Shown here: in pieces, positions 3,261 through 59,116 of the stretch | How the letters are laid out: each line of letters opens with the position of its first letter | Position numbering within the stretch: the first letter of the stretch is position 1 | From: an uncultured Spartobacteria bacterium | GTDB taxonomy: Bacteria; Verrucomicrobiota; Verrucomicrobiia; Chthoniobacterales; UBA6821 | DNA: 64,000 nt | Assembly (NCBI GenBank): GCA_903913785.1 | Contig: CAIWMF010000009.1 | Location: forward strand, 2,878-66,877 | Direction of reading: 5' to 3' | Made by a program: the position numbers and the translations under genes | The notes under the pieces: model-generated | Told to the model about the DNA's origin: nothing | The model's input: the letters and a program-made list of their open reading frames with translations, nothing else | Database searches by the model: none

Positions 3261-4715
3261 ATGCCTTCCTCTGCTCTCAACTCAGGTTCTCGATCCATAC
3301 ACTTTTCCTACCGTATTATTGGTCTGGGTAATGCTGGGGTGAATTTTTTAGATCGCTTGTTACTTAAGGATCCTGCGTTCTCTGGACTCATTGCTCTTAA
3401 TAATGATGCTGAGGCACTCGCTGCCTCGGTTGTGACCACAAAGCTCCTTCTGCCCTCGGAGCTCGATGATTCTTCCTCATTGTCTTCTGAAGACTTAGCA
3501 AAAGCTCTTCCTCAACTTGTCAAGGAGATGGAGCAAGCATCAGTGGTAATTCTTGTGGGAGGTCTTGGTGGCGGATGCGCCTCAACACTCCTTCCTCATG
3601 TGGCAAGGATGAGTAAAGCCGCTCACAAAACGACTCTTGCCTGCGTGAGTCTTCCTTTTTCCTTTGAGGGTAAACGAACGCAATTAATAGCCGCTCAGTC
3701 GATGGCAGCATTAGAAAAAGAATGTGATGGATTGATTTTCCTAGATAATGATCGTCTTTGTGCAAAGCGTGCTTCGATTTCTGCCTTAGGGGAAACATTT
3801 ACTGCTTCTGATGAGGCTATGGAAGCGATTTTGCCCGCACTCTTAGCTATTTTATTTAACAAAGGTCCTGTTCGTATTACGCGTGCTGATTTTTTAAAAG
3901 CATTGCAAGAGCGTGGTTCCAAGCACTCGTTTGGTTACGGTGAGGCCATAGGGGGGAATCGATTACATGAAGCACTTGAGCAAGCTTTAAAAAATCCTCT
4001 ACTCGATCGTGGGCGCTGTTTGCCTAAAGCGAGTCATGTTTTTCTACTCTTGCGAGGTCCTAAGGATATTTCTTTTGCAGAAGTGCAAGCTGCCATGCAG
4101 GAAGTAGAGCGCTTGGCAGGACCTGACCGCGATATCCAATTAAGTGTGTATCCCGAGAAGCCTTCTGGAGAGCCTTTGCAAATTTTTCTTTTCGCTATTA
4201 TTGGAGGAACTCCTGCTGCACTAGAGGTAATGCAGCCCTTGCCAGCAGCTGAATCTAAACTACCCAAGGAAGAAATTATTAAGCCGCAACTAGAGCTTAG
4301 TAGTCATGAAACTCTCCCCTCTATAGATCTTTTAGAGCGCCCGCAAGCTTCTCAAGACGAACATGCCGTATTGGAGAGTATTGTAAGTAATTGTGAGACT
4401 CTTGCCAGTAGCCTAAAGACTAGCACCAAGGGAGTGAAGCCATACAGCCAAGAAGAGGAAGGATCAATAGCACCTAAAAAAGAGAGGGAAGATAAGAGGG
4501 AGCTTTTTCAAGAAGATCTTTTTAAGAAATCTGCTGAAATTCCAGATGCTATTGCTACAAAGTCCTTGCTACCTCCAAAACTCAAACAAACTCAAGGAGC
4601 TTTGAATCTCAAAGCCCTGCAACGAGGGCGCTTCGATAAAAGCGAACCAACTATTTTTGAGGGAGAGGATCTTGATACGCCTACCTATTTGAGATTAGGA
4701 TTAAAACTCGGCTAA
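3261..4715 (+). CDS. ftsZ: divergent FtsZ-like tubulin-fold protein
   Basis: Track ORF 3252..4715 (TTG start); first ATG at 3261. FtsZ-like blocks are present: IIGLGNAGVNFL, LNNDAEAL, VGGLGGGCAS, SLPFSFEGKR, FLDNDRL. It has a long disordered linker and a C-terminal DLDTPTYLRLG peptide resembling the FtsA-binding tail. It occupies the canonical position after ftsA. Confidence 0.8.
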   Translation: MPSSALNSGSRSIHFSYRIIGLGNAGVNFLDRLLLKDPAFSGLIALNNDAEALAASVVTTKLLLPSELDDSSSLSSEDLAKALPQLVKEMEQASVVILVGGLGGGCASTLLPHVARMSKAAHKTTLACVSLPFSFEGKRTQLIAAQSMAALEKECDGLIFLDNDRLCAKRASISALGETFTASDEAMEAILPALLAILFNKGPVRITRADFLKALQERGSKHSFGYGEAIGGNRLHEALEQALKNPLLDRGRCLPKASHVFLLLRGPKDISFAEVQAAMQEVERLAGPDRDIQLSVYPEKPSGEPLQIFLFAIIGGTPAALEVMQPLPAAESKLPKEEIIKPQLELSSHETLPSIDLLERPQASQDEHAVLESIVSNCETLASSLKTSTKGVKPYSQEEEGSIAPKKEREDKRELFQEDLFKKSAEIPDAIATKSLLPPKLKQTQGALNLKALQRGRFDKSEPTIFEGEDLDTPTYLRLGLKLG

Positions 4716-4949
4716 CCCGAATATTTCATACTGATTGTTACGAGGAGGCAGCGAAGCCTTATGGATACTGCGCTCAAGCTCGAAGTCGTTGATTCGCTTG
4801 GCGAAGCTTGACTCACCCCTTCGGGGCTGTTGGAGAGCAGTCTGCCCCACGGCCTCGCAGCCAGTGGTGTTCTCCGGGCATTATGTACAGAGATACAGCC
4901 CTGCTTCCAAATATTCGCATGCCTGACTCTATCAGGCTTCGCGGCTGCC
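4713..4949. mobile_element. MITE-like repeat copy A (one intact terminus, right terminus missing)
   Basis: Starts with (C)TAACCCGAATATTTCATACTGATTGTTACGAGG, sharing its TAA with the ftsZ stop codon. Internal blocks match other copies (GCGCTCAAGCTCGAAGTC, ATGTACAGAGATACAGCCC). Inverted arms GGCAGCGAAGCCT (4747-4759) and AGGCTTCGCGGCTGCC (4934-4949) close the element and are followed by a T7 run, so it could also act as the dcw-operon terminator. Confidence 0.75.
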
Positions 4950-4963
4950 TTTTTTTATTAGGA

Positions 4964-6580
4964 CTAAGAAATAGAACAAGCATTTCTACTTGGCAGCTTC
5001 GACTTATCCTTTATCTCCAAATAACCAGCCAACTGCTCCGTAGCAGCCAACTGCTCCGTAGCATACAAATGATTGCGAGCGTATAGAAGATAAGAAGTAT
5101 CTGGAGCTGATGAGGAACAGTTTGCTCGCGTAAATAAATCGAAGACTTTATTAAAGCCCTTAATGATATCTGCTCTAGGCTTCGGTCTTGCCAACTCAAG
5201 CGTGAGACACAAATGAGCGCGACCTTTATAATATAGATTCTCTGCGCTGTCTTCATCGTCCTCTCTTTCTGCTTTTTGAAAAAACTCGAAGGCTTCATTA
5301 AAGCCCTTAATGATATCTGCTCTAGGCGTCGGTCTTGCCAACTCAAGCGTGGCATCCAAACGAGCACGACCTTGATTTCTTATATAGTAAGTTTGATAAC
5401 CTTCATTAACATGAATTTTTGCTTTTTGAAAAAGATTAAATGCTTGGTTGAAGCCCTCAATGATATCTGCTCTAGGTTGTAGTTGTGCTGACTCCTCCGT
5501 GCTCGACAAAGCAGCAGAAGCTTCGTTCTGTAAATAATAAGCTCGATCATAATGGCCGTTAGCTCGTTCTTCCTCGGCTTTTTCAAGAAGAGTAAAAATT
5601 TCATCCAGAGTGATTACCAGTTTGAAACAAAAAATAAGCTCGGCGTTTTCGGGCACGTTCTTTAATAAAAGACACCCAGATTGTAAGGCTTTTTTGTAGT
5701 TTTCTAAATATTCGGTCCTATTTGCTAAGTGAGCGAAAGATCCTTCTGAGTCTAATTGTAAGCTTCCAAGACCAGCTGTTCTAAGATCAGCTATTTTAAG
5801 ATCAATTATTTTTTTATCTAAGGTGATGATGTTGTCTTGGAGGGCGACAGAAATATTATTTAATATCTTACCGTCTAGATTGACATGTTTTCTTAAAGAG
5901 CGTGAGGTTAAAGGAAACTCTATTTTTCCTTTTGCTACTTGCTCTAACATCACTCTTCCATCGAGCACCTCTTTGATAAGTTTTGGCTCCAGTTCCTCTG
6001 TAAAGTCAAATGAAAGCAACCTGTTTTGCTCAATTTTTTCTAATGCTTCTTCAAATTTATCTTGCACAGAGATAGCTCTTACGTCCCTAAATAGGGAGTT
6101 ATTGACGATATCTGTGACTTGGTCTGCATCCAGTCCTTGAGTATCCAAAAGTCTCTCTAGTGGGCCTCTTTGTTCCTCTGTTTCTGAGAGATCAGGTGGT
6201 GCAGAAGGTTCAATATCTCCACTGATTTTAAGAGATTCAGACTTATTTATTATCTCTGGAACTGGAGGATAAGAACTTATCGTATTAACCTCCTCTGAGG
6301 ACATACTAGTTGATGGAAACTTTAAATTTTCTAAAGATGCTAAATTTTTAGATTTTTCTTTAGCAGGATCTTGAGCAAGACGAGAAGGTCGATTCGAAAA
6401 CGTACTCGTCGACATCTGTTTGCTAACCTTGTGTGTTGGAACCGTAGGCATCTCAACAACTGTAGTCGATCCGGGGAATTTCCCTTTCACTCGCACTGAT
6501 CGAGCTTGGGCAGATGAAGGAGCCTGAGGGTTTGCTGTTGGTACTTGAGAGCTAGTTTGTGGTTTTGATTTTAATAGCAT
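4964..6580 (-). CDS. hypothetical protein with C-terminal 49-50 aa tandem repeats
   Basis: 538-aa ORF. The N-terminal third is S/T/P-rich and I saw no signal peptide. Three repeats of the form PRADII[EK]GFN.AF..F.KA....LELARP. I recognise no family. Confidence 0.6.
   Translation of the reverse strand: MLLKSKPQTSSQVPTANPQAPSSAQARSVRVKGKFPGSTTVVEMPTVPTHKVSKQMSTSTFSNRPSRLAQDPAKEKSKNLASLENLKFPSTSMSSEEVNTISSYPPVPEIINKSESLKISGDIEPSAPPDLSETEEQRGPLERLLDTQGLDADQVTDIVNNSLFRDVRAISVQDKFEEALEKIEQNRLLSFDFTEELEPKLIKEVLDGRVMLEQVAKGKIEFPLTSRSLRKHVNLDGKILNNISVALQDNIITLDKKIIDLKIADLRTAGLGSLQLDSEGSFAHLANRTEYLENYKKALQSGCLLLKNVPENAELIFCFKLVITLDEIFTLLEKAEEERANGHYDRAYYLQNEASAALSSTEESAQLQPRADIIEGFNQAFNLFQKAKIHVNEGYQTYYIRNQGRARLDATLELARPTPRADIIKGFNEAFEFFQKAEREDDEDSAENLYYKGRAHLCLTLELARPKPRADIIKGFNKVFDLFTRANCSSSAPDTSYLLYARNHLYATEQLAATEQLAGYLEIKDKSKLPSRNACSIS
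5026..5061 (-). repeat. perfect 18-bp tandem duplication inside a CDS
   Basis: CAGCCAACTGCTCCGTAG occurs twice (5026-5043 and 5044-5061), encoding ATEQLA ATEQLA near the C-terminus of the 538-aa protein. Confidence 0.9.
5100..5545 (-). repeat. intragenic tandem repeat, period 147-150 bp, 3 copies
   Basis: The motif TT[AG]AAGCCCT[TC]AATGATATCTGCTCTAGG starts at 5151, 5298 and 5448. Copies 1 and 2 continue with near-identical C[TG]TCGGTCTTGCCAACTCAAGCGTG. Confidence 0.85.
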
Positions 6581-6837
6581 GGTTTTCTTGGATTTTGGAT
6601 GACACGAAATACCAACTATATTAATAAAAATTTAGAGAAAACAACTCAATTTGATGGGTGCAGCCATAACCTGAATCTATCGATGATGATTTTTTGAGTA
6701 CGCAGCAAATCTTGAAAAACTGGCTCATTAGTGAGTAGTGGAACTCATCGATATCCTCTTTTTTCAGGGTGTCATTATTGATGAGTTAATTCGTAGCTCT
6801 GGTAGAGGATCATGATTGATTTCATAACAGAGTCCAT

Positions 6838-6879
6838 GTGGAATATTCGGGTTAAAGGTAAACCGCATATTTCATTGTG
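6838..6879. repeat. two abutted MITE-family termini (right end, 3-nt spacer, left end)
   Basis: GTGGAATATTCGGGTTAA AGG TAAACCGCATATTTCATTGTG. The two ends face each other, 61-85 nt upstream of the clpB ATG. Confidence 0.65.
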
Positions 6880-9516: not shown

Positions 9517-9566
9517 AAACATGCATGTTACGCATAGTGTATTGAAAATCTATGAGATCTCATATC

Positions 9567-9618
9567 TAGCCTAGCTTCCCAGCTTCTGCAGTAGATCGGT
9601 GTGAAATATTCGGGTTAA
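9567..9618. repeat. MITE-family solo end (left-end type, inverted)
   Basis: CCTAGCTTCCCAGCTTCTGCAGTAGATCGGTGTGAAATATTCGGGTTAA matches the reverse complement of the left end of copy 36009-36197 at 41 of 49 positions by hand alignment. Confidence 0.7.
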
Positions 9619-9667: not shown

Positions 9668-10564
9668 ATGCAACCAAAGAAGCTTGTTCAATTTGATTGG
9701 GCCATCAAGATACTCCTGCGCCGCAAGGCGAATTTTGGGATTCTTGAGGGATTTCTTTCTGAGCTGCTCAAGACGGATGTGAAAATAACATCATTGCTTG
9801 AAAGCGAATCCAATAAGGAGCACTCGAAGGACAAGTCAAATCGTGTCGATGTGTTGGCGCAACTCAGTCATGGTGAGCGCGTCATTATTGAAGTCCAATG
9901 CGAACGCGAGTGGGATTTTATTTCACGAATGCTCTATGGCGTTTCTAAAGTTGTGGTTGAGCATCTTCAGGAGGGTGATGCCTATGGAATGATTCCACGG
10001 ATCATATCGGTTAATATCGTCTACTTCGACTTGGGCCAAGGAGAAGATTACATCTATCATGGAACGACTCAATTTGAAGGTATTCACAAAAAAGATATTC
10101 TTCAGTTAAAAGAATCAGAGCAAAAAAATTATCCCAGCCGTATTGATCGCATAGGTCAAATCTTGCCAGAATATTACGTTCTTAAAGTCAGTGGCTTTGA
10201 CTTAAAAATAAAAGACACCCTCGATGAGTGGGTGTATACGCTGAAAGAATCGGAAGTCAAACCGGAGTTTAAAGCCAAGGGGATCCACGAAGCAGCCAAT
10301 ACACTCGCAGTGCTGAATCTTTCTGATGAGGAACGCTTCGCCTATGACCGACATATTGGCGATATGAGAATTTCTAAAAGCACAGCACAAACCTATTTTG
10401 GTGATGGTTTGAATGAAGGGATAGCCCAAGGGATGGCCCAAGGGATGGCCCAAGGAAAAGCTGAAATCGTCAACAATATGCATCAACTCGGTTTGTCAAT
10501 CACTGACATTGCAAAGTTTGTCAAACTTTCCGAAGCCTATGTCCAAAAGATTTTACAATCATGA
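9668..10564 (+). CDS. Rpn/YhgA-like PD-(D/E)XK nuclease family protein (putative transposase-like)
   Basis: 298 aa. The N-terminal pattern (FDWAIKILL, RVDVLAQLSHGERVIIEVQ) is typical of the Rpn-type 'putative transposase or invertase' family. The stop overlaps the mrp start (ATGA). Confidence 0.65.
   Translation: MQPKKLVQFDWAIKILLRRKANFGILEGFLSELLKTDVKITSLLESESNKEHSKDKSNRVDVLAQLSHGERVIIEVQCEREWDFISRMLYGVSKVVVEHLQEGDAYGMIPRIISVNIVYFDLGQGEDYIYHGTTQFEGIHKKDILQLKESEQKNYPSRIDRIGQILPEYYVLKVSGFDLKIKDTLDEWVYTLKESEVKPEFKAKGIHEAANTLAVLNLSDEERFAYDRHIGDMRISKSTAQTYFGDGLNEGIAQGMAQGMAQGKAEIVNNMHQLGLSITDIAKFVKLSEAYVQKILQS
10418..10453 (+). repeat. 12-bp tandem repeat x3 inside a CDS
   Basis: GGGATAGCCCAA GGGATGGCCCAA GGGATGGCCCAA, encoding GIAQGMAQGMAQ. 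Confidence 0.9.
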
Positions 10565-15467: not shown

Positions 15468-17600
15468 TTAATATACCAAAAAACGCATGGCATTAAGGTC
15501 TTCGGTAGCTCTTTTAAGCGATTTCTGAGCACGTTCAATGGCTTCTTTCTGATTTTTAATGCTGTTAATATTAGAACCTCCAACGATATAGGGTGAAGTA
15601 ATGAGCGTGTAATAGTCTTCCATAGAGCCCTTTCTTTCAAAAGAAAATTGAGAAAGATTATGCTTTGTCTTTATTTTCTCTTGGCCTGGACGCATATAGA
15701 GCAAGAGTGGTCCTGTTTGAGCATCAGGCTGTGCTAATTGAGTCACTTTCTTAAATTCAGAGGCAGCATGATCATATGATTGAGCTATTTTTTGATAAAG
15801 ATTTGCTCTTTCATAAAAATTATTTTCATGTGAGTGTACATATTCCTCGGCACTATTCCTGTAGTTGTTATACGCATGTAAGCAGCACATTTTTTCATCA
15901 GCTCTTTTGTTGCTCATCGCATTTTTGAGATCACTTTGGCTCTTAAGGGCTCTTTCTAATAAAAAATTTATTATCGCAGAATGATCGTGAGAGGTGACCT
16001 TTTGATGTGTGATCGCCATGTTTGATGAGCTTTTAAAAGTGCCATAGTTCTTTTTACTTTCATCAGGGAGTAAACATTCCAATTCTTCCTGAGTCGGTTC
16101 TACTTCCTTAGGTTCTGGCTCATGGAGAGCCTTCTTGGGTATGATGGGTCCATTGATATAATGAATGGAGGTATTCTCTGTTTTATTAATTTCAGTAAGA
16201 GTCGCATTTAATAAGGAGACTAGTGCTGTTGCTGGTCTTGAGTTGCGCTTGTTTGGAGGGTTCCCACAGACTGAGATCTTTGGGAAGGAGGAAAGTTCTT
16301 TAGTGATCAGTTCAGATCCTTCATCATCTGAATGTTTTAAACCTAGGAATAGAGGAGATTGTTTTTCTGATTTGACGGGCGAGGTCACCTGCGTGATAGG
16401 AAGAATATTTGATTTTGTATTTAGAAGAGGAGTTTTTTCGCTGTCTTGGATCCCAGAGTTAGCAAGATGAGTATTATTGTTGTTACGCTGAATAGAAGTA
16501 TTCATAAAATTGAAAAAATCTGTTTCTGACAATTCCTCGTTGTTACTTGCTCGTCTTATTTTTCCCAAGTCTAAATTATTTTGAGAAGACGTTCTCTCAT
16601 CTATGTATTGAGGTAGAGATCGAAATTCGTGCTCATAGGATGGCCGTGTATGGAGATTGGATTCTGCACAAAGACATGTGTCACATATTCTATTATGTAC
16701 TGGTTGTCGTTCTCTGTGCTGAAGGGGTCGTCGAACGCCTGAATAGACACTTATGCCAGATATAATGAGTCCCAAGGCATCTCTTATGAAGGGCTCTGCT
16801 ACGCCACCCATTGTTGGTATCATCATCATGGTCACATTTTTTTGATTCTCTTCTTGCCTCTCTAGCACAAAGAAGGAGTGATTACTTTTTAGATCGGGGT
16901 CGACGTTATGAAGACATGCTTCTTCATGATGATTTAACCCGGATATTTCATGCTGATCGTGACGAGAAGGCTGCCAAGTCTGATGGGGCAAGGCGAGTGA
17001 TGAAGCCTGACAACGGCTGTATGAGTACATATTGACTCGCTCGCACCTGCTCGGCTCGCCCTTACGGGCTGCCCCTAACCTAACACGGTTACGGCAGTCT
17101 ACCCCAGGCTCTCCCGCGCACTGGTGTTGCCCGAGGAAGACTTCGAGCTTGGGCGCAGCATCACTCTCTTGGGTTACCTCATCAAGTATTTCTTGCATGA
17201 CTTCCTCACTTATCTTAGAAGGGATATCCTTGCCTTCCTTCTCTTGAAGAATGAGGGCATAGCATTCTGCATCGAGTAAACTGAGAAATGTGATGAGAGC
17301 ATCTTGTGTCGTCTTGAAACTCTCTATCTCATCATTAAAGATAGGAGCTTCATAGACGTAGGACCCAGGAATACCCATGCGAAGGATTCCTCCTTTGGCT
17401 TGAGGAATATCTGCCATCTTTTCATTGTAGAGATGATGTAGGTCGCTTGTGGCTGCACCATTTAACAACTCGGTATATTTGCTAATGGATATTCTACTAT
17501 TGCGAGACTCTTGAGCAGCCAGCTTTGATAGGTGTGCAAAAAAAAGAAATGTTATTAGAGGTACGAAAAGAAAGATGAATGCAATGGGGGAATGGCGCAT
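15468..17600 (-). CDS. hypothetical secreted protein carrying an in-frame repeat-element insertion
   Basis: 710-aa ORF with an N-terminal signal-like segment (IAFIFLFVPLITFLFFAHLSKLAAQE). I recognise no family. Roughly aa 146-223 are encoded by MITE copy C. Confidence 0.55.
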   Translation of the reverse strand: MRHSPIAFIFLFVPLITFLFFAHLSKLAAQESRNSRISISKYTELLNGAATSDLHHLYNEKMADIPQAKGGILRMGIPGSYVYEAPIFNDEIESFKTTQDALITFLSLLDAECYALILQEKEGKDIPSKISEEVMQEILDEVTQESDAAPKLEVFLGQHQCAGEPGVDCRNRVRLGAARKGEPSRCERVNMYSYSRCQASSLALPHQTWQPSRHDQHEISGLNHHEEACLHNVDPDLKSNHSFFVLERQEENQKNVTMMMIPTMGGVAEPFIRDALGLIISGISVYSGVRRPLQHRERQPVHNRICDTCLCAESNLHTRPSYEHEFRSLPQYIDERTSSQNNLDLGKIRRASNNEELSETDFFNFMNTSIQRNNNNTHLANSGIQDSEKTPLLNTKSNILPITQVTSPVKSEKQSPLFLGLKHSDDEGSELITKELSSFPKISVCGNPPNKRNSRPATALVSLLNATLTEINKTENTSIHYINGPIIPKKALHEPEPKEVEPTQEELECLLPDESKKNYGTFKSSSNMAITHQKVTSHDHSAIINFLLERALKSQSDLKNAMSNKRADEKMCCLHAYNNYRNSAEEYVHSHENNFYERANLYQKIAQSYDHAASEFKKVTQLAQPDAQTGPLLLYMRPGQEKIKTKHNLSQFSFERKGSMEDYYTLITSPYIVGGSNINSIKNQKEAIERAQKSLKRATEDLNAMRFLVY
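16934..17164. mobile_element. MITE-like repeat copy C, located inside a CDS
   Basis: Starts TTAACCCGGATATTTCATGCTGATCGTGACGAGAAGGCTGCCAAG. It ends in CCCGAGGAAGACTTCGAGCTTGGGCGCAGCATC, which is the reverse complement of the GATGCTGCGCTCAAGCTCGAAGTCTTCCTCGGG block of copy D. The second terminus is missing. Confidence 0.75.
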
Positions 17601-36008: not shown

Positions 36009-36197
36009 TTAACCCGGATATTTCATACTCATCTACTGCGGAGACCGGGAAGCTAGGGTGGATGCTGCGCTCAAGCTCGAAGTCTTCCTCGGGCGGTATG
36101 TACACATACAGCCCGGCATCACAATCCTTCGCCCGCCTTGTACTAACAAGCTTTGCACAGCGTCTCATTACGATTCAGTATGAAATATCCGGGTTAA
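36009..36197. mobile_element. MITE-like repeat copy D (full length, both termini)
   Basis: 189 bp. TTAACCCGGATATTTCATAC at 36009 and GTATGAAATATCCGGGTTAA ending at 36197 are exact reverse complements, with TTAA on both sides. The interior shares blocks with copies A, C and G. Confidence 0.85.
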
Positions 36198-36483: not shown

Positions 36484-36509
36484 GTTACACGGACTTTCCC
36501 TTGTTGCTC

Positions 36510-37571: not shown

Positions 37572-37700
37572 AGTAGTAAAGTGGGTTGTTTTTGTGATGG
37601 AAAACACACTATATAGTAAACTCAACGCATCTGCAAATTTTTTTTGCATTCTTTTTTTGGGGGGCACCCCCAATGCATGTCGTCCCATGAGAAGGGAGTC

Positions 37701-37767
37701 TAGCCCGCATATTTCATATTGGTTCGTCGCAAGCCGCAGCAGAATCGGTATGAAATATTCGGGTTAA
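37701..37767. mobile_element. mini MITE-family copy E (67 bp, both termini)
   Basis: TAGCCCGCATATTTCATAT ... GGTATGAAATATTCGGGTTAA. The termini are inverted at about 16 of 19 positions, with only about 28 nt between them. Confidence 0.75.
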
Positions 37768-37921: not shown

Positions 37922-38060
37922 TTAACCAGGATATTTCATACGGATCGTGACGAGGCGGCCGCGAATACTAATAGGGTAGCACCAGTGCTCCCTCTACTCG
38001 AGTACCTCAGGTACACTCCATTGCTGCGAGCTCTTAATTTCTTGTTTTTCATCAGCTTTA
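37922..38060. repeat. MITE-family copy F (one terminus plus interior shared with 41721-41824)
   Basis: TTAACCAGGATATTTCATACGGATCGTGACGAGGCGGCC..., ending ...TTCTTGTTTTTCATCAGCTTTA just before the giant ORF. The 3' 69 nt align to 41756-41824 at 50 of 69 positions. Confidence 0.7.
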
Positions 38061-38085
38061 AGCGACTTTGCAAACAGGTTCTAAG

Positions 38086-41000
38086 ATGACAAAGACACTT
38101 CTGCTCTTTCTCTTTTTCTTGGTGGTGTCTGCCTTTGAGCTGATGGGGCAGTATAGTAACAACGGAAATATCTATGTAGGATACTATGTTTCTGGTTCGA
38201 ATGCATCTGTTTCGCCTCCCGGTTATAGTGATCCTTACTGTACTAATTTTTTCGTTGGATATGGCGGTAGTTATTCAAATAACTCTGTAACCTTTCTCTG
38301 CAATCAGTACTCAGATTTTTATATAACCAATTTGTATGTTAATTATCAAGGGTCAAGCAACAGTGCGTTTTTTACTGTCTCAAATTATTGGGATAGTTTC
38401 TACATCTTGTCCAATTGTTATCTTGGGTATCAACCTGGTACATCTAATGGTTATATTCAAAACAATACAGCGTTTATTTCTGGAAATCCTAACTCTGCTA
38501 GCTATTGTACTAATTTTATTGGTTATCAGGGTTCTAGTAATACTTTTGAAATAACTGCTGACGGAATTACTACTTTTACATACACAATTATTGGCGGAAC
38601 AAATACAAATGATTTTAGTAATGTAGCATCTAATAATACATTTTATATAAATAATAATAATAGTGTAGGTTATAATTCTTCAAATAAAGATTGTGGTATG
38701 TTCATACTTTCCTCAGGCAATCAATTCTTAATGGACGGCGCTGGTACCAGCTACCCCGTATATAATTTTGATACAGGTAATGATGTTCCTTCAGGGTATC
38801 CAGGTGATTTTCATATATATGGGTATAGTAATAGGGTGATACTCTCTAATTCCAGTGTACAATGGGACAGTACCATGTATATAGGTGGTTCAAACTATGG
38901 AACAAATTACCCATCTTTTTCAAATAATATTATTACTATTACTAGTAATTCTGCATGGATCAATTATGGTAATGCTGCGAATGGCGATAATATCGTCGCT
39001 TCCTCAGGAAATCAAATTATTATATCGAATGGTAGTTATATGAGTAACTATAATAATTTTTATCTAGGTCTTTATGGCTCTAGTAATAGCATGACCTTGG
39101 CTAGTAATTCTAGCTTTGTACTTCAAGGTACTGAGTATTCATATACTGTTTCTATGTATGTTGGTAACAGTGCTGGGACCATAAGTAATAATATCTATAT
39201 ATATGATACTTCTTACTTATATCTGCCGGGTGGAAATATCTATTTATTTGTGGGGAATACTAATGGTGCTAGTGGAAATATTTATATTTCTAATAATAGT
39301 GGTACTGGTTCTAATCTTAATATCGATGGCAATACTTACATCTATAATGGAACGCTCTCTCTTCATGGTACTAATGCTTGCTTAACTTATAATTCTAATT
39401 ATCAGAATGTAGGAAATATTTATCTTTATAATGGCACTCTCTATTGTGGTGAAAATCCCTCTGCATTTACTCAGGTGGAAAATATTGGTTTAGGAAATAA
39501 TAATGGTACTAATGCTACCAATACAAATACTAATGCCAGTCTTTATCTTTCGACGAATGGAGTGACCTCCATGTATTTTACGTTTCTCCAATTTTGGAAC
39601 AATGTGAATATTTATAATATTAATCCCAACAATTCGCAGCAAATTATTAATGTATCTGTCACTTTATTTGACAGCAGCACAGTTGCGACCATAGGTAATA
39701 TTAGTTTTATTTCTAATGTATCTTTGGATAATAATATCGATCCTATTATTAATTTTGGAAGTTCTTCGGGATTTAGTAATGATTTTACCTCTAACTTTAC
39801 TTTTTCTGTGACAGGGGCCACAGTCGGTCAGTCCAGTAATGCTTCCACGGGAAGTAACTATCTCTACTTTTGGATTCAGACCAATGCAAATATCACGGTG
39901 GCTCAAAGCATTAATGAAACAAATGCTTTCAATGTCAATTCTTTAACCTATACAGCAGGAACATTTACAGTCTCTACTCCTTACGTTGGTATCAATATGC
40001 TCAATATGATTTCTAATAGTTCCTTGGTATTAACCGATGAGTCTTTGACTGTTTCTAAATCTTTGAGTTGTCTCATGTCCACTCTTAATACAAATACTAA
40101 TTTATTGATTGGACCAGGCATAACACTCTCAACTCCTAATACATCTATCGGTGCTGTTACGGATGCTGATTGCAAGCTTCTGAATGAAGGCATCTGGGAT
40201 AATAGTTCTAATTTTTTTCTTGGATATGGATCCGGTGGTAATACCGTGCTAGATTTGCAGAATGGTGGCGTCTTGAGCAATGCTGGTATGACAGTCATTG
40301 GCAGCAACGGTAATAATGCACTGAATATTGTCGATAATAATAGTATCTGTTATGCTAGTAATTTGATCATGGAATCTGCTTATATAGGTAATAGTAATAT
40401 TGTGAATGTCAATGGAGGCCGTCTCTATGTGACAAATAATAGTGTCGTTAATACTAATCCTGCCTTAAACTATTCATTGATTGTGGGGTATGTCGGCTCT
40501 CATGATTACCTCAATATTTCGAATGGAGGTTATGTCACCAATTCGTTAGGGGTTATTGGTTACTCAACGAACTCTTCCAATAATTACGCTTGTGTTACAG
40601 GGGCTGGTTCCCAATGGATCAATACGAATGGATTCTATGTAGGCTTTATGGGAGGAAAAAATAATCTCCTTATTAGCAATGGAGGTTCTGTGTATGTCAA
40701 TGGATTTCAATCCTTCGTAGGGCTTGCTTCTTCGAGTAATACGGTTACGATTACAGGGAGAAATTCCCTCTTCTCTAATTATGGGTTACTCAATATTGGC
40801 TATCATGGTAGTTATAATAAAATCATGATATCTAATGCAGGAACGCTCATCGATAATAATATGCAATCATCCCCAGATGATAGTTATGCTGCGATGATAG
40901 GAGCTTATTCTAATAATAATTCAGTAACTATTGGAACTAATGGCTTGTGGACGAATAATGGTAATCTTTTTATTGGTTGCTATGGATCCTCCAACAGTGT

Positions 41001-41673
41001 TACTAATAATGGAGGGACGCTTGATGCCAGTGGTGTTTATATTGGTTTTAATAGTGGCAATCATAATAGTCTTGTCATCAATAGTGGCACCGTTAATACG
41101 GATGTTTTACAGGTTGGGAATGGTGGTAGCAATTATTCTTCTTTGATGCTTGCCTCTTCAAACGCATATTTCAATCTTGCTAATAGTTCATCTTTATATC
41201 TGTACGGTACGATTTCTAATGCTGGAACGATCACAATAAGTAATACAGCAAGCGGTGCCGTAACTAATCAGACTATTGGCTCTATATATAATACTGGTAC
41301 GATGACTATTAATGCTAATTTGATCAATTATGGGTATATTTCTAATGGCGGGACCATTACAGCTTCTGCTTTTTCTAACTATGGTACTCTTGTAGGAAAT
41401 CCAGTCAATGCCTCTGTTACCTATAATGATACTCCCACGTTACAGAGTTCTGGTATGATGATGGGTGATCATCTTGTCGAGATGCCTCATATGATTCCTC
41501 TGGAGCAGAATGATGAAATATCCATCAATGAAGAGAATGCTGCGTATTTTGTAAAAGAGGCATTACAATTGGCCTCCAGCTTAGTGTATGCTCAAAAACC
41601 TCCACCTCCAAGCAAACCCTCTCATAAAAAGGCTTTTCATCACAAGAAAGTAGGCAAGAAAGTCTATTCTTAA
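38086..41673 (+). CDS. giant Asn/Ser/Gly/Tyr-rich secreted repeat protein (T5SS/PEP-CTERM-associated-repeat-like beta-helix)
   Basis: Track ORF from TTG 38068; ATG at 38086 gives the signal peptide MTKTLLLFLFFLVVSAFELMGQ. It has many degenerate modules such as LIVGYVGSHDYLNISNGGYV ... ACVTGAGSQWINTNGFYVGFMGGKNNLLISNGGSV. I saw no C-terminal beta-barrel, PEP-CTERM or LPXTG motif. Confidence 0.75.
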   Translation: MTKTLLLFLFFLVVSAFELMGQYSNNGNIYVGYYVSGSNASVSPPGYSDPYCTNFFVGYGGSYSNNSVTFLCNQYSDFYITNLYVNYQGSSNSAFFTVSNYWDSFYILSNCYLGYQPGTSNGYIQNNTAFISGNPNSASYCTNFIGYQGSSNTFEITADGITTFTYTIIGGTNTNDFSNVASNNTFYINNNNSVGYNSSNKDCGMFILSSGNQFLMDGAGTSYPVYNFDTGNDVPSGYPGDFHIYGYSNRVILSNSSVQWDSTMYIGGSNYGTNYPSFSNNIITITSNSAWINYGNAANGDNIVASSGNQIIISNGSYMSNYNNFYLGLYGSSNSMTLASNSSFVLQGTEYSYTVSMYVGNSAGTISNNIYIYDTSYLYLPGGNIYLFVGNTNGASGNIYISNNSGTGSNLNIDGNTYIYNGTLSLHGTNACLTYNSNYQNVGNIYLYNGTLYCGENPSAFTQVENIGLGNNNGTNATNTNTNASLYLSTNGVTSMYFTFLQFWNNVNIYNINPNNSQQIINVSVTLFDSSTVATIGNISFISNVSLDNNIDPIINFGSSSGFSNDFTSNFTFSVTGATVGQSSNASTGSNYLYFWIQTNANITVAQSINETNAFNVNSLTYTAGTFTVSTPYVGINMLNMISNSSLVLTDESLTVSKSLSCLMSTLNTNTNLLIGPGITLSTPNTSIGAVTDADCKLLNEGIWDNSSNFFLGYGSGGNTVLDLQNGGVLSNAGMTVIGSNGNNALNIVDNNSICYASNLIMESAYIGNSNIVNVNGGRLYVTNNSVVNTNPALNYSLIVGYVGSHDYLNISNGGYVTNSLGVIGYSTNSSNNYACVTGAGSQWINTNGFYVGFMGGKNNLLISNGGSVYVNGFQSFVGLASSSNTVTITGRNSLFSNYGLLNIGYHGSYNKIMISNAGTLIDNNMQSSPDDSYAAMIGAYSNNNSVTIGTNGLWTNNGNLFIGCYGSSNSVTNNGGTLDASGVYIGFNSGNHNSLVINSGTVNTDVLQVGNGGSNYSSLMLASSNAYFNLANSSSLYLYGTISNAGTITISNTASGAVTNQTIGSIYNTGTMTINANLINYGYISNGGTITASAFSNYGTLVGNPVNASVTYNDTPTLQSSGMMMGDHLVEMPHMIPLEQNDEISINEENAAYFVKEALQLASSLVYAQKPPPPSKPSHKKAFHHKKVGKKVYS

Positions 41674-41720: not shown

Positions 41721-41824
41721 TACGGACGAAATAACTACCTTGGCGCCGACCTTCGCTCTACCCGAGTATTTAAGGTATGCTTGATCAGTGTGTGCTGTCG
41801 ACTTCTTGTTTTTTATCAGCCTTA
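41721..41824. repeat. direct-repeat partner of 37939-38060, downstream of the giant gene
   Basis: TACGGACGAAATAACTACC...CTCTACCCGAGTATTTAAGG...TTCTTGTTTTTTATCAGCCTTA, in the same orientation as the upstream copy, running directly into copy G. Confidence 0.65.
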
Positions 41825-42035
41825 AACCCGGATATTTCCTACTGATCACCTGCGGAGACCGGGAAGCAAGGGTGGATGCTTCGCTCAAACTCACATTGTG
41901 ACTTGGGGAGGGCTGTACACATACAGCCCGGCGTCACAATGCTCGTCTGCCTTACCCCATCAGCCTTCGCAGTCTCTTCGTCACGACTAGCATGATTAGC
42001 ATGAAGTATCCGGTAGCATGAAGTATCCGGGCTAG
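41822..42035. mobile_element. MITE-like repeat copy G (full length, duplicated right terminus)
   Basis: TTAAACCCGGATATTTCCTACTGATCACCTGCGGAGACCGGGAAGCAAGGGTGGATGC... The right end is TAGCATGAAGTATCCGG twice (41997-42013 and 42014-42030), followed by GCTAG. Confidence 0.8.
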
Positions 42036-44829: not shown

Positions 44830-46140
44830 ATGTTGCGTATTAAAAACTGGCAGGAGTTATCTGCTTGTCAAAAAAAAGAGGTTCTCTCCAGGCCTCCCCA
44901 AAGTCATGCCCTTGGGGCGCAGGTGCGAGAGATTATCAACACGGTCAAGAAAGAAGGAGATGTGGCGCTAGGTAAGTGGACACGAGAGTTCGATCGCGTT
45001 GATTTAAAAACCTTCGCTATCTCTCAAGAGGAAATGGAAGAGGCTTCTCTTCCAGCCCATTCTCTTGCTGCGATTCAAGTAGCAGTAGAAAATATCACCC
45101 GTTTTCATCGCTCTATGCTACCGCAGAATCAATCTGTGAGGATTGTGCATGGAGTGACCCTTGAGCGCATCCATCGTCCGATGAGTCGTGTTGGTTTTTA
45201 TGTTCCAGGTGGTCGCAATGCTCCTTTGATTTCCTCTCTTCTCATGCAGGCTATTCCAGCTCAGGTGGCAGGATGTCCGTTACGTATTCTCTGTACTCCG
45301 CCAAAGTCCGACGGAACGATTGATCCGGCTCTCCTCGTTGCTGCACGTCTCTGCAACATCGAGAAGATTTATAAAATTGGAGGCGCCCAAGCTATCGCCG
45401 CAATGGCCTATGGAAGTGAAACCGTCCCCAAGGTGGATAAAATATTTGGCCCCGGTAATGCATACGTCACAGAAGCTAAAGTGCAAGTTTCCATCGATCC
45501 TGCTGGTGCTGCTATCGACATGCCCGCTGGCCCTTCTGAGGTTCTTATTATTGCTGATAGAGAGGCTAATCCCAATTTCGTCGCTGCCGATTTACTAGCG
45601 CAGGGGGAACATGGTCCGGATTCTCAGGTGTTTCTTTTATGTCAAGATCGCGTCTTTGCAGAAGCTGTTAATAAGGCGTTAGGCGAGCAGTATGAGCGTT
45701 TAAAGAGAAAAGAATTGCTTCAACAATCTCTGCAAAAGAGTGCTATTCTCCTGTGTGCAGATCGATCTATGATGATTGAAATTACTAATGAGTATGCTCC
45801 TGAGCATCTCATGATCCAGTGCTCTGATGCGGCAAGTTGGGTGGAGGAGATTACGGCGGCAGGAACGATTTTTTTGGGGTCATGGGCAGCAGAAACGCTC
45901 GGTGATTATGTGACCGGGAGCAATCATATCTTGCCCACTTATGGTCATGCACGCTGCCAGAGTGGTCTCTCAACGGGAGATTTTCTTAAATTTATCTGCG
46001 TCCAATCTATTTCTGAGGATGGCTTGAAAACCTTAGGAGGAGCAGCCCATACCCTCGCCATGATGGAGGGGTTAGATGGACATGCCAATGCGATTACTCA
46101 GCGATTAGCACTAGCCCGAATATTTCATGAGTGCTCTTGA
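44830..46140 (+). CDS. hisD: histidinol dehydrogenase
   Basis: 436-aa typical HisD. The last codons (ARIFHECS*) overlap a MITE-family terminus. Confidence 0.93.
   Translation: MLRIKNWQELSACQKKEVLSRPPQSHALGAQVREIINTVKKEGDVALGKWTREFDRVDLKTFAISQEEMEEASLPAHSLAAIQVAVENITRFHRSMLPQNQSVRIVHGVTLERIHRPMSRVGFYVPGGRNAPLISSLLMQAIPAQVAGCPLRILCTPPKSDGTIDPALLVAARLCNIEKIYKIGGAQAIAAMAYGSETVPKVDKIFGPGNAYVTEAKVQVSIDPAGAAIDMPAGPSEVLIIADREANPNFVAADLLAQGEHGPDSQVFLLCQDRVFAEAVNKALGEQYERLKRKELLQQSLQKSAILLCADRSMMIEITNEYAPEHLMIQCSDAASWVEEITAAGTIFLGSWAAETLGDYVTGSNHILPTYGHARCQSGLSTGDFLKFICVQSISEDGLKTLGGAAHTLAMMEGLDGHANAITQRLALARIFHECS
46111..46130. repeat. MITE-family solo terminus at the hisD/hisC junction
   Basis: CTAGCCCGAATATTTCATGA. 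It matches the family terminus (CTAG + CCCGAATATTTCAT), and the hisC ATG (46127-46129) lies inside it. Confidence 0.6.
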
Positions 46141-50374: not shown

Positions 50375-51049
50375 ATGAACACAATACCTGACCTTACTGC
50401 CGACTCATTAGCCTGGGAAAAAATGAATGGACTCATCCCTGTAATTGTCCAACATGCGGAGCACGGTGATGTCTTGATGTTGGGTTATATGAATGAAGAG
50501 GCTTTTACCGAATCGATAAAAACACGTCAGCTGACTTTTTATAGCCGTAGTAAGCAACGCCTCTGGCGCAAAGGCGAGATTTCAGGTCATGTGATGGAAA
50601 TACAAGGAGTCCGAACTGATTGTGATCGTGATACCTTGCTCGTCCATGTCCTGCCAAAAGGACCTGCCTGTCATTTAGGTACTCCAACTTGTTTTGAGCC
50701 AGCAATGCCAACTCAATGGAGTTTTTTACATCAACTCACCATGCTCATTAGCGAACGTGCGCGCTCACAATCTCATGCCGCTAGTTATACGAATCAACTC
50801 CTGAGCAGTGGCATCGAGCGGTGTGCTCAGAAAGTCGGAGAAGAAGCAGTGGAAACGGTGATTGCAGCTGTGGCTCAAAAATCAACTCAACTCGTGAGTG
50901 AAACTGCAGACTTGCTCTTTCATTTGCTCGTGCTCTTGCAAGCATCTGGTACTAGCTTTTTAGAGATCATCAAATGTTTACAAGAGCGTCATTCCTCAAG
51001 ATCCAAGAATGCGCAGAATGAGAGGATTAATCCGCATATTTCACACTAA
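50375..51049 (+). CDS. hisI: bifunctional phosphoribosyl-AMP cyclohydrolase / phosphoribosyl-ATP pyrophosphatase
   Basis: 224-aa fused HisI-HisE. The last codons (RINPHISH*) are encoded by a MITE-family terminus. Confidence 0.9.
   Translation: MNTIPDLTADSLAWEKMNGLIPVIVQHAEHGDVLMLGYMNEEAFTESIKTRQLTFYSRSKQRLWRKGEISGHVMEIQGVRTDCDRDTLLVHVLPKGPACHLGTPTCFEPAMPTQWSFLHQLTMLISERARSQSHAASYTNQLLSSGIERCAQKVGEEAVETVIAAVAQKSTQLVSETADLLFHLLVLLQASGTSFLEIIKCLQERHSSRSKNAQNERINPHISH
51027..51046. repeat. MITE-family solo terminus inside the hisIE 3' end
   Basis: TTAATCCGCATATTTCACAC matches TTAACCCG[CG]ATATTTCATAC at about 18 of 20 positions. Confidence 0.55.
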
Positions 51050-56175: not shown

Positions 56176-56943
56176 ATGCGTACTTATTTTAATGGTGTCG
56201 ATACTCGCGGAGCGTTTGGAAAGTTACATGAGGGAGAGGTACCAAAGCATGCATTCACCGGAAGACTCGGTGGTCATAAAGTCACAGTAGCTGATTTTGG
56301 TCCAACCGTCAATAAAGGCTTGAGAACCGCGATGCGGCTTCCTGGATATGCTCTAGTGGCTGCAGGTGCGCAAAAAACGGCTGAAGAGTTCTATCCAAAA
56401 TTATCAGTTAAAAAGTACCTCGCTGCAGAGTGTGTTCACACACTGGAACACCTAACCGCTGCGTCTCGAAAAGTGCGCGAAAATCGTGAGTTCGATGCAA
56501 AACAAGCAAAGAAAAACAAGACTGCAGATGAGCAATATACTCCGAGAAACCCTGTCAGGACTCACGGTAATAGTGGTCGTTTACCAATCTCCACAAGCAC
56601 TTCAGGTAGCACTGACCCTCAGCCTTCTAGCCCGGTACCCAATTTTTTTGATCATAACCCTATTAGTCAGGTTAATGAGGATACGCTGCGCAGTCGCTCT
56701 CCTAGTGTGGCTAGTGATGATAGTTATGATAGTGATGATAGTGATGATAGTGATGATAGTGTGGGTAGTGATGCTAGTAGTAACTTTGATTTTTATGAAA
56801 CACAAGAGCCCCCAGAAGAGCCCCTAAATACAGCAGCAGAAGTAGCAGACATAACACAAGGGTTAGAGAAGTATGCTACAGAAACAAATATCCCCGCTAA
56901 AATAGGAGCAGACATAGCACAAGCGTTACAGAAAAAAGCATAA
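56176..56943 (+). CDS. hypothetical protein with an acidic Ser/Asp repeat tract
   Basis: 255-aa ORF. I recognise no family. Its C-terminal half contains DDSYDSDDSDDSDDSVGSD. Confidence 0.5.
   Translation: MRTYFNGVDTRGAFGKLHEGEVPKHAFTGRLGGHKVTVADFGPTVNKGLRTAMRLPGYALVAAGAQKTAEEFYPKLSVKKYLAAECVHTLEHLTAASRKVRENREFDAKQAKKNKTADEQYTPRNPVRTHGNSGRLPISTSTSGSTDPQPSSPVPNFFDHNPISQVNEDTLRSRSPSVASDDSYDSDDSDDSDDSVGSDASSNFDFYETQEPPEEPLNTAAEVADITQGLEKYATETNIPAKIGADIAQALQKKA
56713..56781 (+). repeat. 9-bp coding microsatellite (AGTGATGAT and variants, about 7.5 units)
   Basis: AGTGATGAT AGTTATGAT AGTGATGAT AGTGATGAT AGTGATGAT AGTGTGGGT AGTGATGCT AGTAGT. Confidence 0.9.
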
Positions 56944-57079: not shown

Positions 57080-57137
57080 CCGCACGCATCATCTTCGCGG
57101 TCTCCTCGTCACGATCAGTATGAAATATTCGGGCTAG
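57080..57137. repeat. MITE-family solo end upstream of dnaG
   Basis: ...CATCATCTTCGCGGTCTCCTCGTCACGATCAGTATGAAATATTCGGGCTAG matches the right-end type of copies C and G. No partner terminus is found within about 200 nt upstream. Confidence 0.7.
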
Positions 57138-57209: not shown

Positions 57210-58991
57210 ATGAAAATTTCCCAAGAGAGTATTGAGCGAGTTGCTTCGGCCTGTAATATCGTCGATGTCGTGTCTTCGTATTTTCCGCTCAAGCGAGCTG
57301 GGGTGAATTTTCGAGCGCTCTGCCCGTTTCATCATGAGAAGAGCCCATCGTTTTATGTGAATGAGGTTCGGCAGACATTTCATTGTTTTGGTTGTGGTGT
57401 GGGTGGGGGAGTGTTTCGATTCGTGATGGATTACGAACATCTTGATTTTCCCACGGCTGTGCGTCGTTTGGCAGAACGTTCGGGCATCACGCTTGTTGAG
57501 GAATCCAGTGCCCAGGATATCAGCGCGCGTAGTGAGCGTGCTCGGCTTCTTGACCTCCATCATAAAGCGGCCCTTTGGTATCACCATCAGCTCCTTCGCT
57601 CTCCTGCTGCTCTAGAAGCACGCAGTTATTTAAAACAACGTGGGTTTTCTAAAGAAATCGCTGTCGCCTGGCAGCTTGGCTATGCTCCTCGGAGCTGGGA
57701 CGCCTTGAAAAAATGGGGGATTTTGGAGGGGTTTCGTGCTTCAGAGCTTGTGGCGGCGGGACTCCTCTTAAAACGTGATTCCAACGAGACCTATGATCGT
57801 TTTCGCGATCGCTTGATGTTTCCTATTCGTAATGACTATGGGGAGGTGATTGCTTTTAGTGGGCGAATATTGTCTGCTGCTTCTCCAGAAGGCAAATATG
57901 TGAACTCGCCGGAAACATCGCTTTTTAAAAAAGGAAACATTCTCTTTGGCATGGATAAAAGCAAGCGGGCCTTAGTTCAAAAAGGCGAGGCCATTGTTCT
58001 AGAAGGACAAATGGATCTCATTGCTGCTTTTGAACATGGTTGTGAGAATGTGGTTGCCCCGCAAGGAACCGCCTTTACCTTGGAGCAAGCTCGGTTGTTG
58101 CGACGTTTTGTCGAGCGCGTGATTCTTTGTTTTGATTCTGATAATGCTGGCATGACGGCTGTGGAGCGTTCTTTGCCGGCCTTGTTTGCCAATGGTTTTC
58201 AAGTGCGTGTTGCGCAATTGCCATCTGGAGAGGATCCCGATTCCATGATTCAAAAGCAGGGCATCGACTCTTTTCAAAAACTTCTTTCCGGTGCTGAAGA
58301 TTTTTTTGATTACTCTATTCATAGAGCACAAGGTGACGCTGGGCTTGCGTTATCTCCGCATCGTGTTGCCCTCTTGGCAAAACAACTAGCTGGATATTTA
58401 ACGCTTTTGCCTGATGCTGTTTTACGAGAAAGAACAAGCGAGCAGGTTGCGCTCAGGTTGGGGATTTCTCGTGCGGCGTTGCTGTCAGCGACTTCTCCTG
58501 TTGTGCTATCTTCACGAGAAAACGTGGAACAAGAAACACGTATCCTTCGAAAAAAAATCTCTGCTGGTACAGAATTGTTATGTCGTTTAGCACTTGTGCA
58601 TCGTGAGGTAAGGGAGTGGTTGTCTCAGCAGAAATCACCGATGCCCCACGAACTCGATCCTGAGCTCGTACTCCTTGAGGAGTTGCTGGTCAGTAATGTT
58701 GTGTCTTCATCGCAACCCATTGGAGCGCTCCTGCCATCTCTCTCTCTCTGTTTACAGCACTTGATTCCTTCTTGGGATCTAGAGAAGACGGTGCCAGATC
58801 CTTTGTGTGCGGCACAAGAGGTCTGGTCCGGGTTTTACGTTGCTTATTTGAAGCGCCAACAAAGTGAGGCAACTCAACAATTACGACAACCAGGCATCTC
58901 TCCAGAGCAGATTCTTAGTATCCAGCAAGAAATTCTTGATCTTCAAGATTCGATACGTAACTCTTCCCGTCGTTTGGCACCTGTGGCTTAG
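57210..58991 (+). CDS. dnaG: DNA primase
   Basis: Track ORF from ATG 57156; ATG at 57210 (MKISQESIERV...) fits DnaG N-termini better. Contains a zinc ribbon (CPFHHEKSPSF...CFGCG) and a TOPRIM domain. Confidence 0.92.
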   Translation: MKISQESIERVASACNIVDVVSSYFPLKRAGVNFRALCPFHHEKSPSFYVNEVRQTFHCFGCGVGGGVFRFVMDYEHLDFPTAVRRLAERSGITLVEESSAQDISARSERARLLDLHHKAALWYHHQLLRSPAALEARSYLKQRGFSKEIAVAWQLGYAPRSWDALKKWGILEGFRASELVAAGLLLKRDSNETYDRFRDRLMFPIRNDYGEVIAFSGRILSAASPEGKYVNSPETSLFKKGNILFGMDKSKRALVQKGEAIVLEGQMDLIAAFEHGCENVVAPQGTAFTLEQARLLRRFVERVILCFDSDNAGMTAVERSLPALFANGFQVRVAQLPSGEDPDSMIQKQGIDSFQKLLSGAEDFFDYSIHRAQGDAGLALSPHRVALLAKQLAGYLTLLPDAVLRERTSEQVALRLGISRAALLSATSPVVLSSRENVEQETRILRKKISAGTELLCRLALVHREVREWLSQQKSPMPHELDPELVLLEELLVSNVVSSSQPIGALLPSLSLCLQHLIPSWDLEKTVPDPLCAAQEVWSGFYVAYLKRQQSEATQQLRQPGISPEQILSIQQEILDLQDSIRNSSRRLAPVA

Positions 58992-59095
58992 AAAATGCAG
59001 GGCACGTTTTTCCCATCAAGAAGGAGGAAGCCTGGCGCCAAAAAGAACAAAGTTATTTGTTGCGCAAGGTAGGCAACTTGCTCCGCGCGCACAAA

Positions 59096-59116
59096 GTATA
59101 AAATATTTGGGACTAG
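59096..59116. repeat. degenerate MITE-family terminus upstream of rpoD
   Basis: GTATAAAATATTTGGGACTAG differs from GTATGAAATATTCGGGCTAG by two substitutions and one indel. Confidence 0.4.

Follow-up and report, generated by a model that had tools for sequence, protein, structure and literature searches.

A polymorphic family of miniature inverted-repeat elements with IS1380-type ends, and copies read in frame, in an uncultured Chthoniobacterales bacterium

Classical MITEs of bacteria (miniature inverted-repeat transposable elements), such as Correia/NEMIS, ERIC, RUP and BOX, are short, non-autonomous, hairpin-forming and mostly intergenic sequences, which carry inverted repeats at their ends, duplicate the target and decay by deletion. 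Here we describe a repeat family that is dispersed over a 64-kb stretch of DNA (the window) and has all of these properties. Most bacterial MITEs carry a TA dinucleotide at their termini, according to the part of PMC5896051 that bears on this point; unlike the classical families, the family of the window duplicates 4 bp (TTAA, CTAG or CTAA), and its length and frame tolerate translation.

The behaviour of its copies inside genes has two described parallels. In the work of Ogata et al. (2000), in so far as PMC10969869 relays it, Rickettsia palindromic elements (RPEs) insert in frame and are read through as an extra peptide. Set against that excerpt, the present family is similarly palindromic, ~100-200 bp long and present in frame in unrelated housekeeping genes as well as between genes; in-frame insertion with read-through is found in hisD, thiL, a permease gene, a glycosyltransferase gene and the open reading frame (ORF) 15468..17600. 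As the host belongs to the Verrucomicrobiota, we claim a likeness in behaviour alone, and not in sequence or family membership. Unlike RPEs, which belong to a different phylum, the window family is open on both strands, has filled and empty alleles at the strain level and is tied to a transposase family by its ends and duplication, whereas to our knowledge no transposase has been linked to RPEs. The second parallel is Coxiella burnetii, in which QMITE1 and QMITE2 overlap the 3' ends of genes and supply stop codons or C-terminal residues, sometimes in-frame (PMC5896051, in its passages on these elements). The window copies at the ends of ftsZ, hisD and hisIE resemble what those passages describe, but their sequences and host are others, the passages brought up by a term search of that paper show no IS1380 partner, and the comparison is one of behaviour only, with no claim of a sequence relation.

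Among transposase-bearing elements, the ISPa33/ISMaq4 clade of the IS1380 family has nearly the same inverted repeats and likewise CTAG/CTAA 4-bp direct flanks; unlike these, the window elements are 60-283 bp long, carry no transposase gene and have nothing in common with them beyond the termini. A full-text literature search returned no IS1380-linked MITEs and no MITEs of Verrucomicrobia, which is weak evidence given its incomplete coverage, and a 2024 review of prokaryotic MITEs mentions neither IS1380 nor Verrucomicrobia.

The host, a freshwater bacterium that has not been cultured, belongs to the Chthoniobacterales (Verrucomicrobiota). Window coding DNA is 75-77% identical to that of the metagenome-assembled genome (MAG) 'Verrucomicrobia bacterium Xiphi-554', and the window nrdB product has 86% identity to a protein named as Chthoniobacterales. 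Labels such as L131 denote contigs or loci fetched from other genomes or strains.

A dispersed family with filled, shortened and empty sites

An earlier note on the window had proposed a dispersed, non-autonomous inverted-repeat family of at least twelve loci, and the family is real in eleven of the twelve that it listed. The 20-nt terminus TTAACCCGGATATTTCATAC, with at most three mismatches, has 10 matches in the window versus 0.00 in 100 shuffles, and a search with a 13-mer core adds the ends at 6838-6855 (minus), 6858-6875 (plus), 37700 (plus), 46111 (plus) and 42018/42035 (minus). A terminus of ~20 nt is thus common to 11 of the 12 loci; the twelfth, at 59096-59116, has no statistical support, as it needs about three mismatches and an indel, a level at which chance 13-mer matches are common. 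BLAST with 27 copies recovered eight longer loci (4712-4953, 9564-9618, 16934-17191, 36009-36197, 37689-37773, 37922-38064, 41753-42035 and 57086-57137), and the 20-nt solo ends at 6838-6879, 46111-46130 and 51027-51046 came from the motif search only, where they are significant. The one-ended copies and the remaining solo ends listed earlier were found again by one or the other search, direct reading confirmed both termini in 36009-36197, 41822-42035 and the mini copy given as 37701-37767, and the positions proved accurate to ~1 nt. Comparison of copies also recovered the interior blocks that the note had described as common to several of them.

Each element is a long imperfect palindrome with a modal, canonical length of 176 bp (length variants of 60-130 bp and 240-280 bp, overall range 60-283 bp). 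The terminal inverted repeats are 16-21 nt long (CCCGGATATTTCATAC; consensus CCCG[G/A/C]ATATTTCATRC) and common to the copies, with 21 of 21 positions complementary between the arms of 36009-36197, and the ends are bounded by TTAA, CTAA or CTAG, as had been claimed. With a size below ~600 bp and no transposase gene, the family has every testable feature of a MITE. It occurs at ~1 locus per 5-6 kb and makes up ~1.3 kb in total, 2% of the window DNA.

Look-ups with GroES, HisF and FtsA gave contigs of strains that are 95-99.99% identical to the window. Among the strains compared, the copy at 36009-36197 is present only in the window and in L131 (99.99%), and is absent from six contigs, namely L127, L129 and L133 (98-99%) and L130, L134 and L135 (95%), whose empty alleles read GCG(T/G)(T/G)TTAA followed by TGACC, with a single TTAA. 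This copy is a recent insertion with a 4-bp duplication, and the presence/absence polymorphism predicted in the earlier note is therefore real. At thiL it is the window that is empty: only one CTAG, at 26112-26115 (minus strand), stands at the site in its gene (25498..26391, 297 aa), whereas a 95% strain has a 176-bp copy (357 aa) and the 98% strains a 92-bp internally deleted derivative (329 aa), both in frame and both called as one gene. The third polymorphic insertion site lies in hisD, where Xiphi-554 carries a 176-bp copy in frame between CTAG repeats and the window has an empty TTAA in phase 0 at the same codon (45004..45007, plus strand). In the filled/empty comparison TTAA is duplicated at 36009-36197 and CTAG at thiL.

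Compared with the filled alleles of L127 and L130, the empty thiL allele of the window differs at 2 nt within the 6 nt adjoining CTAG (R instead of W), in surroundings that are otherwise 97-99% identical (window 26100-26125). This difference fits an old empty allele acquired by recombination, or a footprint of excision and repair.

Decay is seen at two further sites. The 55-nt solo end at 9564-9618 is a deletion derivative, since the 99%-identical strain L125 has a 272-nt element at the same site (L125 13248-13519), and at 41822-42035 there is an internal indel, the allele of the 98.7% strain L136 having 83 nt more inside the element. The 'solo ends' are thus at least partly deletion remnants.

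The contrary outcome named in the earlier note, all loci fixed in related genomes with covariation of the RNA or operator type, is not what we find. If the repeats were a conserved structured RNA, or a protein-binding or operator motif, held by selection and not mobile, one could point to the folding of single copies as long imperfect hairpins (~-75 kcal/mol, z ~-7.3 versus shuffles), to terminus position 5, which covaries between the two ends, and to the end upstream of dnaG. The latter is identical in 44 of 45 nt in Xiphi-554 (L067 6517-6562), where it lies 74 nt upstream of dnaG, although coding DNA of this MAG is only ~75% identical and the spacer between the dnaG ATG and the MITE end is unalignable between the two. 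Across ten copies, however, conserved structure is limited to the terminal 20-bp stem, with a covariation term of -0.41, and the apparent covariation comes from the palindromic duplicated site and from the one terminus position that marks subfamilies. Rfam gave no match in the whole window at the gathering threshold and none in 35900-38200 even at E<=1, and a promoter/terminator consensus scan of 4600-10000 found nothing inside the elements above shuffled expectation. Beyond the folding expected of any MITE transcript, no evidence favours a structured RNA. In addition, near-identical strains differ in the presence of a copy and of its target duplication, copies are found in either orientation, within coding sequence and in contexts that have nothing to do with one another, and the same ends bound transposase genes elsewhere. 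We therefore consider a selected RNA or operator very unlikely.

The distribution of the family was scanned in one genome per species with the query CCCGVATATTTCATRC, taking loci with multiple hits and paired loci as informative. Among the matches listed, multi-hit loci concentrate in Verrucomicrobia MAGs, in which the ends form inverted pairs 110-190 bp apart with TTAA, CTAG or CTAA flanks; a few paired matches came from other phyla, and single chance matches in unrelated phyla diluted the scan. Remoter relatives with 53-60% G+C had zero copies in 13 kb each.

Ends of the IS1380 type

The target duplication is 4 bp long (TTAA, CTAG, CTAA), as the earlier note had suggested for YTAR/TTAA targets. 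Apart from the filled and empty sites, the 4-nt flanks agree with each other in ~15 of 33 complete MITEs, among them the direct pairs CTAA/CTAA and ATAA/ATAA, which are not palindromic. Duplications of 2 bp (TA) or 3 bp were considered and rejected, as the direct flanks and the empty sites fit 4 bp.

At several loci matching ends lie ~1.6-1.8 kb apart around a gene, and all six transposase genes found between such ends belong to the IS1380 family. In a Pedosphaerales MAG (L105) the element is 1801 bp long and runs from CTAG and CCCGGATATTTCATAC to GTATGAAATATCCGGG and CTAG; its ORF matches NF033539 (IS1380 family transposase, E=1.6e-72) and PF13701 (E=2.7e-97), and this transposase copy has a 67-residue internal deletion. 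A Pseudomonadales MAG (L004/L041) has an intact 1568-bp insertion sequence (IS) with CCCGAATATTTCATACC at both ends and direct CTAA/CTAA flanks, and further IS1380 copies lie between such ends in L115 and in L116/L117/L118. A profile of the two transposases of L105 and L004/L041 yielded more than 7,900 relatives, and three contigs for two of these relatives also show such ends. The closest named plasmid elements, ISPa33 and ISMaq4, both run from CTAG and CCCGGATTTCTCATGA to TCATGAGAAATCCGGG and CTAG, and their repeat CCCGGATTTCTCAT is identical to the MITE repeat CCCGGATATTTCAT in 12 of 14 positions; the termini of the unnamed IS copies in Verrucomicrobia and Pseudomonadales MAGs equal the MITE termini over 16 nt. 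A 1087-bp 'element' in L060 was rejected, as it consists of two ends around a flavin reductase gene and is not an IS.

The IS1380 family, in its ISfinder description, has 4-5-bp target duplications and ends beginning CC. IS copies and MITEs alike have ends that start with CCCG and 4-bp flanks of CTAG, CTAA or TTAA. At the level of sequence, the match of the inverted repeats to IS1380-encoding elements (L105, L004/L041, L115-L118, ISPa33 and ISMaq4) ties the family to IS1380 and to the ISPa33/ISMaq4 clade. TTAA combined with ends beginning CCC also resembles piggyBac, which is eukaryotic. PMC10813416 uses IS1380 as an outgroup to piggyBac.

Based on these ends we propose that the copies of this genome would be mobilised in trans. 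An IS1380-family DDE transposase, supplied from elsewhere, would bind the element ends and insert the element at TTAA, CTAG or CTAA (YTAR), thereby duplicating 4 bp. Internal deletions later reduce the copies to one-ended ones and to 20-55-nt solo ends.

The earlier note had instead guessed at an IS5-like master copy, and mobilisation by an IS5-group insertion sequence has some points in its favour. IS5-group elements duplicate YTAR, both the YTAR/TTAA flanks and a duplication of 4 bp were borne out, and the L105 transposase shows a weak secondary match to PF01609. The guess is nevertheless unsupported, because every transposase between such ends is of the IS1380 family (by NF033539/PF13701, or as annotated for ISPa33 and ISMaq4) and no IS5-type gene was seen beside such an end in the loci examined; the termini, moreover, start with CCCGG like those of ISPa33 and ISMaq4. 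We regard an IS5-type origin as highly improbable.

The density of these short palindromic units, their inverted pairs and mostly intergenic positions, and the likeness of the 60-bp mini copy to a REPIN doublet would suit repetitive extragenic palindromic (REP) sequences or REPINs moved by a RAYT, an IS200/IS605-like tyrosine transposase. Such RAYT/IS200-type elements are not known to make a target duplication, whereas the elements of the window show one of 4 bp. REP superfamilies carry a GTAG or CGTC tag, as stated in the part of PMC3733652 that concerns them; on inspection, the ends described here lack either tag, begin with CCCGG and match IS1380 inverted repeats, and no RAYT-like gene was noticed in the window, where no profile search for one was made, which together make this origin hardly credible.

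An open frame through the element

A property absent from the earlier note is a reading frame that, counted from base 1 of the duplicated site, is nearly stop-free on both strands when the length plus 4 is divisible by 3, together with copies that lie in frame inside genes or form gene 3' ends. Frame 0 reads CTA GCC CGG ATA TTT CAT (LARIFH) at its beginning and TAT GAA ATA TCC GGG CTA (YEISGL) at its end. In 18 copies of suitable length, frame 0 of the plus strand contains 8 stops and that of the minus strand 12, versus 55-71 in each other frame, and the property extends to subfamilies that have diverged and to lineages of high G+C (L020, L092, L101). Avoidance of internal target sites was rejected as the cause of the stop depletion, since the other frames are full of stops; the stop-free frame suggests selection on the source elements.

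As 176 + 4 = 180 nt correspond to 60 codons with a stop-free Leu frame, the effect of an insertion depends on the codon phase. In phase 0, in which the site is read as Leu (CTA G or TTA A), an insertion would add ~60 residues to a gene that can still be read. Where the TAA or TAG of the target is the stop codon of the gene itself, the protein would remain unchanged, and in the third phase it would end after six or seven element codons, for example as (N/S)PDISY-stop, which would be tolerated only near the C-terminus. All three phases occur in the window: read-through in the 710-aa ORF 15468..17600 and in the hisD C-terminus LARIFHECS-stop, a stop within the duplication at ftsZ, and early termination in hisIE (INPHISH-stop). 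In relatives, in-frame host genes are hisD (L050), thiL (L127, L130), a permease gene (L006) and a glycosyltransferase gene (L084), and Pfam confirms hisD, the AA_permease_2 gene and the PMT-like glycosyltransferase. A search with the MITE-encoded peptide against a 5.8-billion-protein database returned only 58 short 'hypothetical proteins' from Chthoniobacterales and Verrucomicrobiae MAGs, which are gene-calling artefacts.

Frame 0 open on both strands, these 58 proteins annotated over copies and several real genes that read through copies could suggest a protein-coding module, a peptide domain spread by duplication whose intergenic copies are decayed gene fragments, but this is scarcely tenable: copies lie mostly between genes, one and the same DNA serves in either orientation and then gives unrelated peptides, flanking duplications of 4 bp together with clean empty sites show that a discrete unit was inserted, Pfam has no family for the window ORF that reads through a copy, and the position that varies in the terminus falls on a first codon position (CCG/TCG/GCG), so that the change is not of the synonymous type.

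Several observations weigh against the reading of the family as translation-tolerant MITEs mobilised by an IS1380-type transposase. The window has no IS1380-type transposase by tblastn with IS1380 transposases, in line with the earlier statement that none with matching ends lies in it, and no transposase occurs in ~100 kb of sister-strain contigs or in the fetched MITE-rich loci of Chthoniobacterales MAGs. MITE interiors are unlike the subterminal parts of the IS, the match being confined to the duplication and 16-17 nt at the ends. In roughly half of the complete copies the two flanks differ, as CTAG/TTAA do at 37700-37767, and this needs a secondary explanation, for example mutation, or recombination of one copy with another. 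One IS1380 element is present twice in the same sample (L116 1429-3180 and L117 1429-3180), with the reciprocal flanks CTAG...TTAG and TTAG...CTAG, as expected after recombination between the two. As for the open frame, common ancestry and palindromic symmetry could partly explain it and weaken the independence of the stop counts, and the peptide search returned no long host proteins. With these points weighed, we hold with high confidence that the repeats form a genuine MITE family that was active recently, has IS1380-type ends, tolerates being read in frame and decays by deletion.

A further idea, which we put forward as doubtful, is that the family is adapted to life inside coding sequence and that a piggyBac-related IS1380 transposase may remove copies seamlessly, so that insertions would be reversible. 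If true, the canonical unit, exactly 60 codons long with its duplication and kept stop-free in the Leu-phase frame in both orientations, could enter any gene of a streamlined genome dense in genes, not excepting essential ones (thiL and hisD, for example). The empty thiL of the window, compared with the filled alleles of the 98% and 95% sister strains, fits precise loss; recombinational allele replacement fits too.

Copies along the window and their meaning

The first copy, at 4712..4953 (plus strand; motif and BLAST), is a long one of ~240 nt with an intact left terminus and no right one. It fills the spacer between the convergent ftsZ and ORF 4964..6580, its left flank CTAA contains the ftsZ stop TAA at 4713-4715, and it is identical in the 99% strain L125. 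The neighbouring ORF 4964..6580 (538 aa, no Pfam family) contains three ~150-nt tandem repeats at 5132-5526 that are 66-88% identical. At 6832..6879 (no strand assigned) two abutting solo termini, a right end at 6832-6855 and a left end at 6858-6879, face away from each other with their interiors gone; they were found as motif matches only and lie in the divergent spacer upstream of clpB. The 55-nt right-end remnant at 9564..9618 (minus strand; motif and BLAST) is followed by TTAA. A near-consensus sigma-70 promoter (9628-9657, TTGACA-18-TAGAAT, 11/12) adjoins this remnant upstream of the gene 9668..10564; it is flanking DNA and lies outside the element. Two facing 13-mers at 11688-11735, each two mismatches from the terminus core, 48 nt apart and without YTAR flanks, could be a mini copy that has degenerated strongly, or a chance occurrence.

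The long copy without one terminus at 16934..17191 (plus strand; BLAST) is read through by the 710-aa ORF 15468..17600 (minus strand), whose translation includes ALPHQTWQPSRHDQHEISGL in the same frame as the in-frame hisD and thiL copies of relatives. This ORF has no Pfam family; it shows a weak N-terminal match (E=3e-4) to a 695-aa ORF of Xiphi-554 (L067 4351-6435), and each of the two holds a MITE copy, at differing positions. They may represent a fast-evolving secreted protein family that tolerates inserts.

The complete young copy at 36009..36197 (plus strand) consists of 181 bp with TTAA on each side and has perfect 21-nt inverted repeats. The mini copy at 37700..37767 (plus strand; motif and BLAST), 60 bp between CTAG and TTAA, lies upstream of nrdB and is present in all strains examined. 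The longest ORF of nrdB (36510-37688) has 392 aa, against 353 aa in all homologues. Its actual start probably lies 39 codons further downstream, and the spacer with the mini copy would then be wider. In the one-ended copy at 37922..38060 (plus strand) the left terminus follows TTAA and is joined to a 73-nt block that recurs at 41753-41825, and the complete copy at 41822..42035 (plus strand), which lies between convergent genes, has a 17-nt tandem duplication of its right terminus (repeats 42001-42014 and 42018-42031). Between these two copies lies a 1201-aa gene of no known family (38068..41673) with a low G+C content (34-40%), flanked by 73-nt direct repeats (37989-38061 and 41753-41825, 73% identical), and outside these by inverted MITE termini (left end 37922, right end 42035). 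The layout at 37922-42035 resembles a composite or captured cargo, and the gene length is 1179-1195 aa across strains.

Solo left termini lie at the 3' ends of two his genes. The one at 46111..46130 (plus strand; motif search), at the hisD/hisC junction, encodes the hisD C-terminus, has the hisC start ATG (46127) inside it and is fixed in all strains examined; the one at 51027..51046 (plus strand) forms the last codons of hisIE, with the stop at 51047-51049. The solo right terminus at 57086..57137 (minus strand), ~50 nt followed by CTAG, lies 72 nt upstream of the dnaG start codon, and its identity to the end in Xiphi-554 could be due to an old insertion under constraint, to gene conversion or to one site having been used more than once. 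ORF 56176..56943 contains, at 56694-56792, tandem 9-nt repeats (GATAGTGAT-like, Asp/Ser-rich), and its product has 255 aa in the window versus 240 aa in a 99% strain.

A scan of the window for tRNA genes found none, and thus no tRNA-linked element. The window derives from the metagenome contig k141_530868 (ENA ERZ27313292), and a second contig of that sample, k141_263563 (L126), is 100% identical to window 1-13245, indicating that the assembly holds redundant or strain-split contigs of the population.

These ends link the repeats to one specific family of transposases, IS1380, whose members are the relatives of piggyBac in bacteria. For annotation, the elements mean that dozens of false 'hypothetical proteins' are called on them and that gene ends are mis-set in Chthoniobacterales MAGs. 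The more interesting part is the in-frame design together with the strain-level alleles. After Rickettsia, the family is a second clear example of mobile palindromic DNA being read through in housekeeping enzymes, and as near-identical environmental strains differ in whether an allele is filled, shortened or empty, the cost and the fate of insertions become measurable in natural populations.

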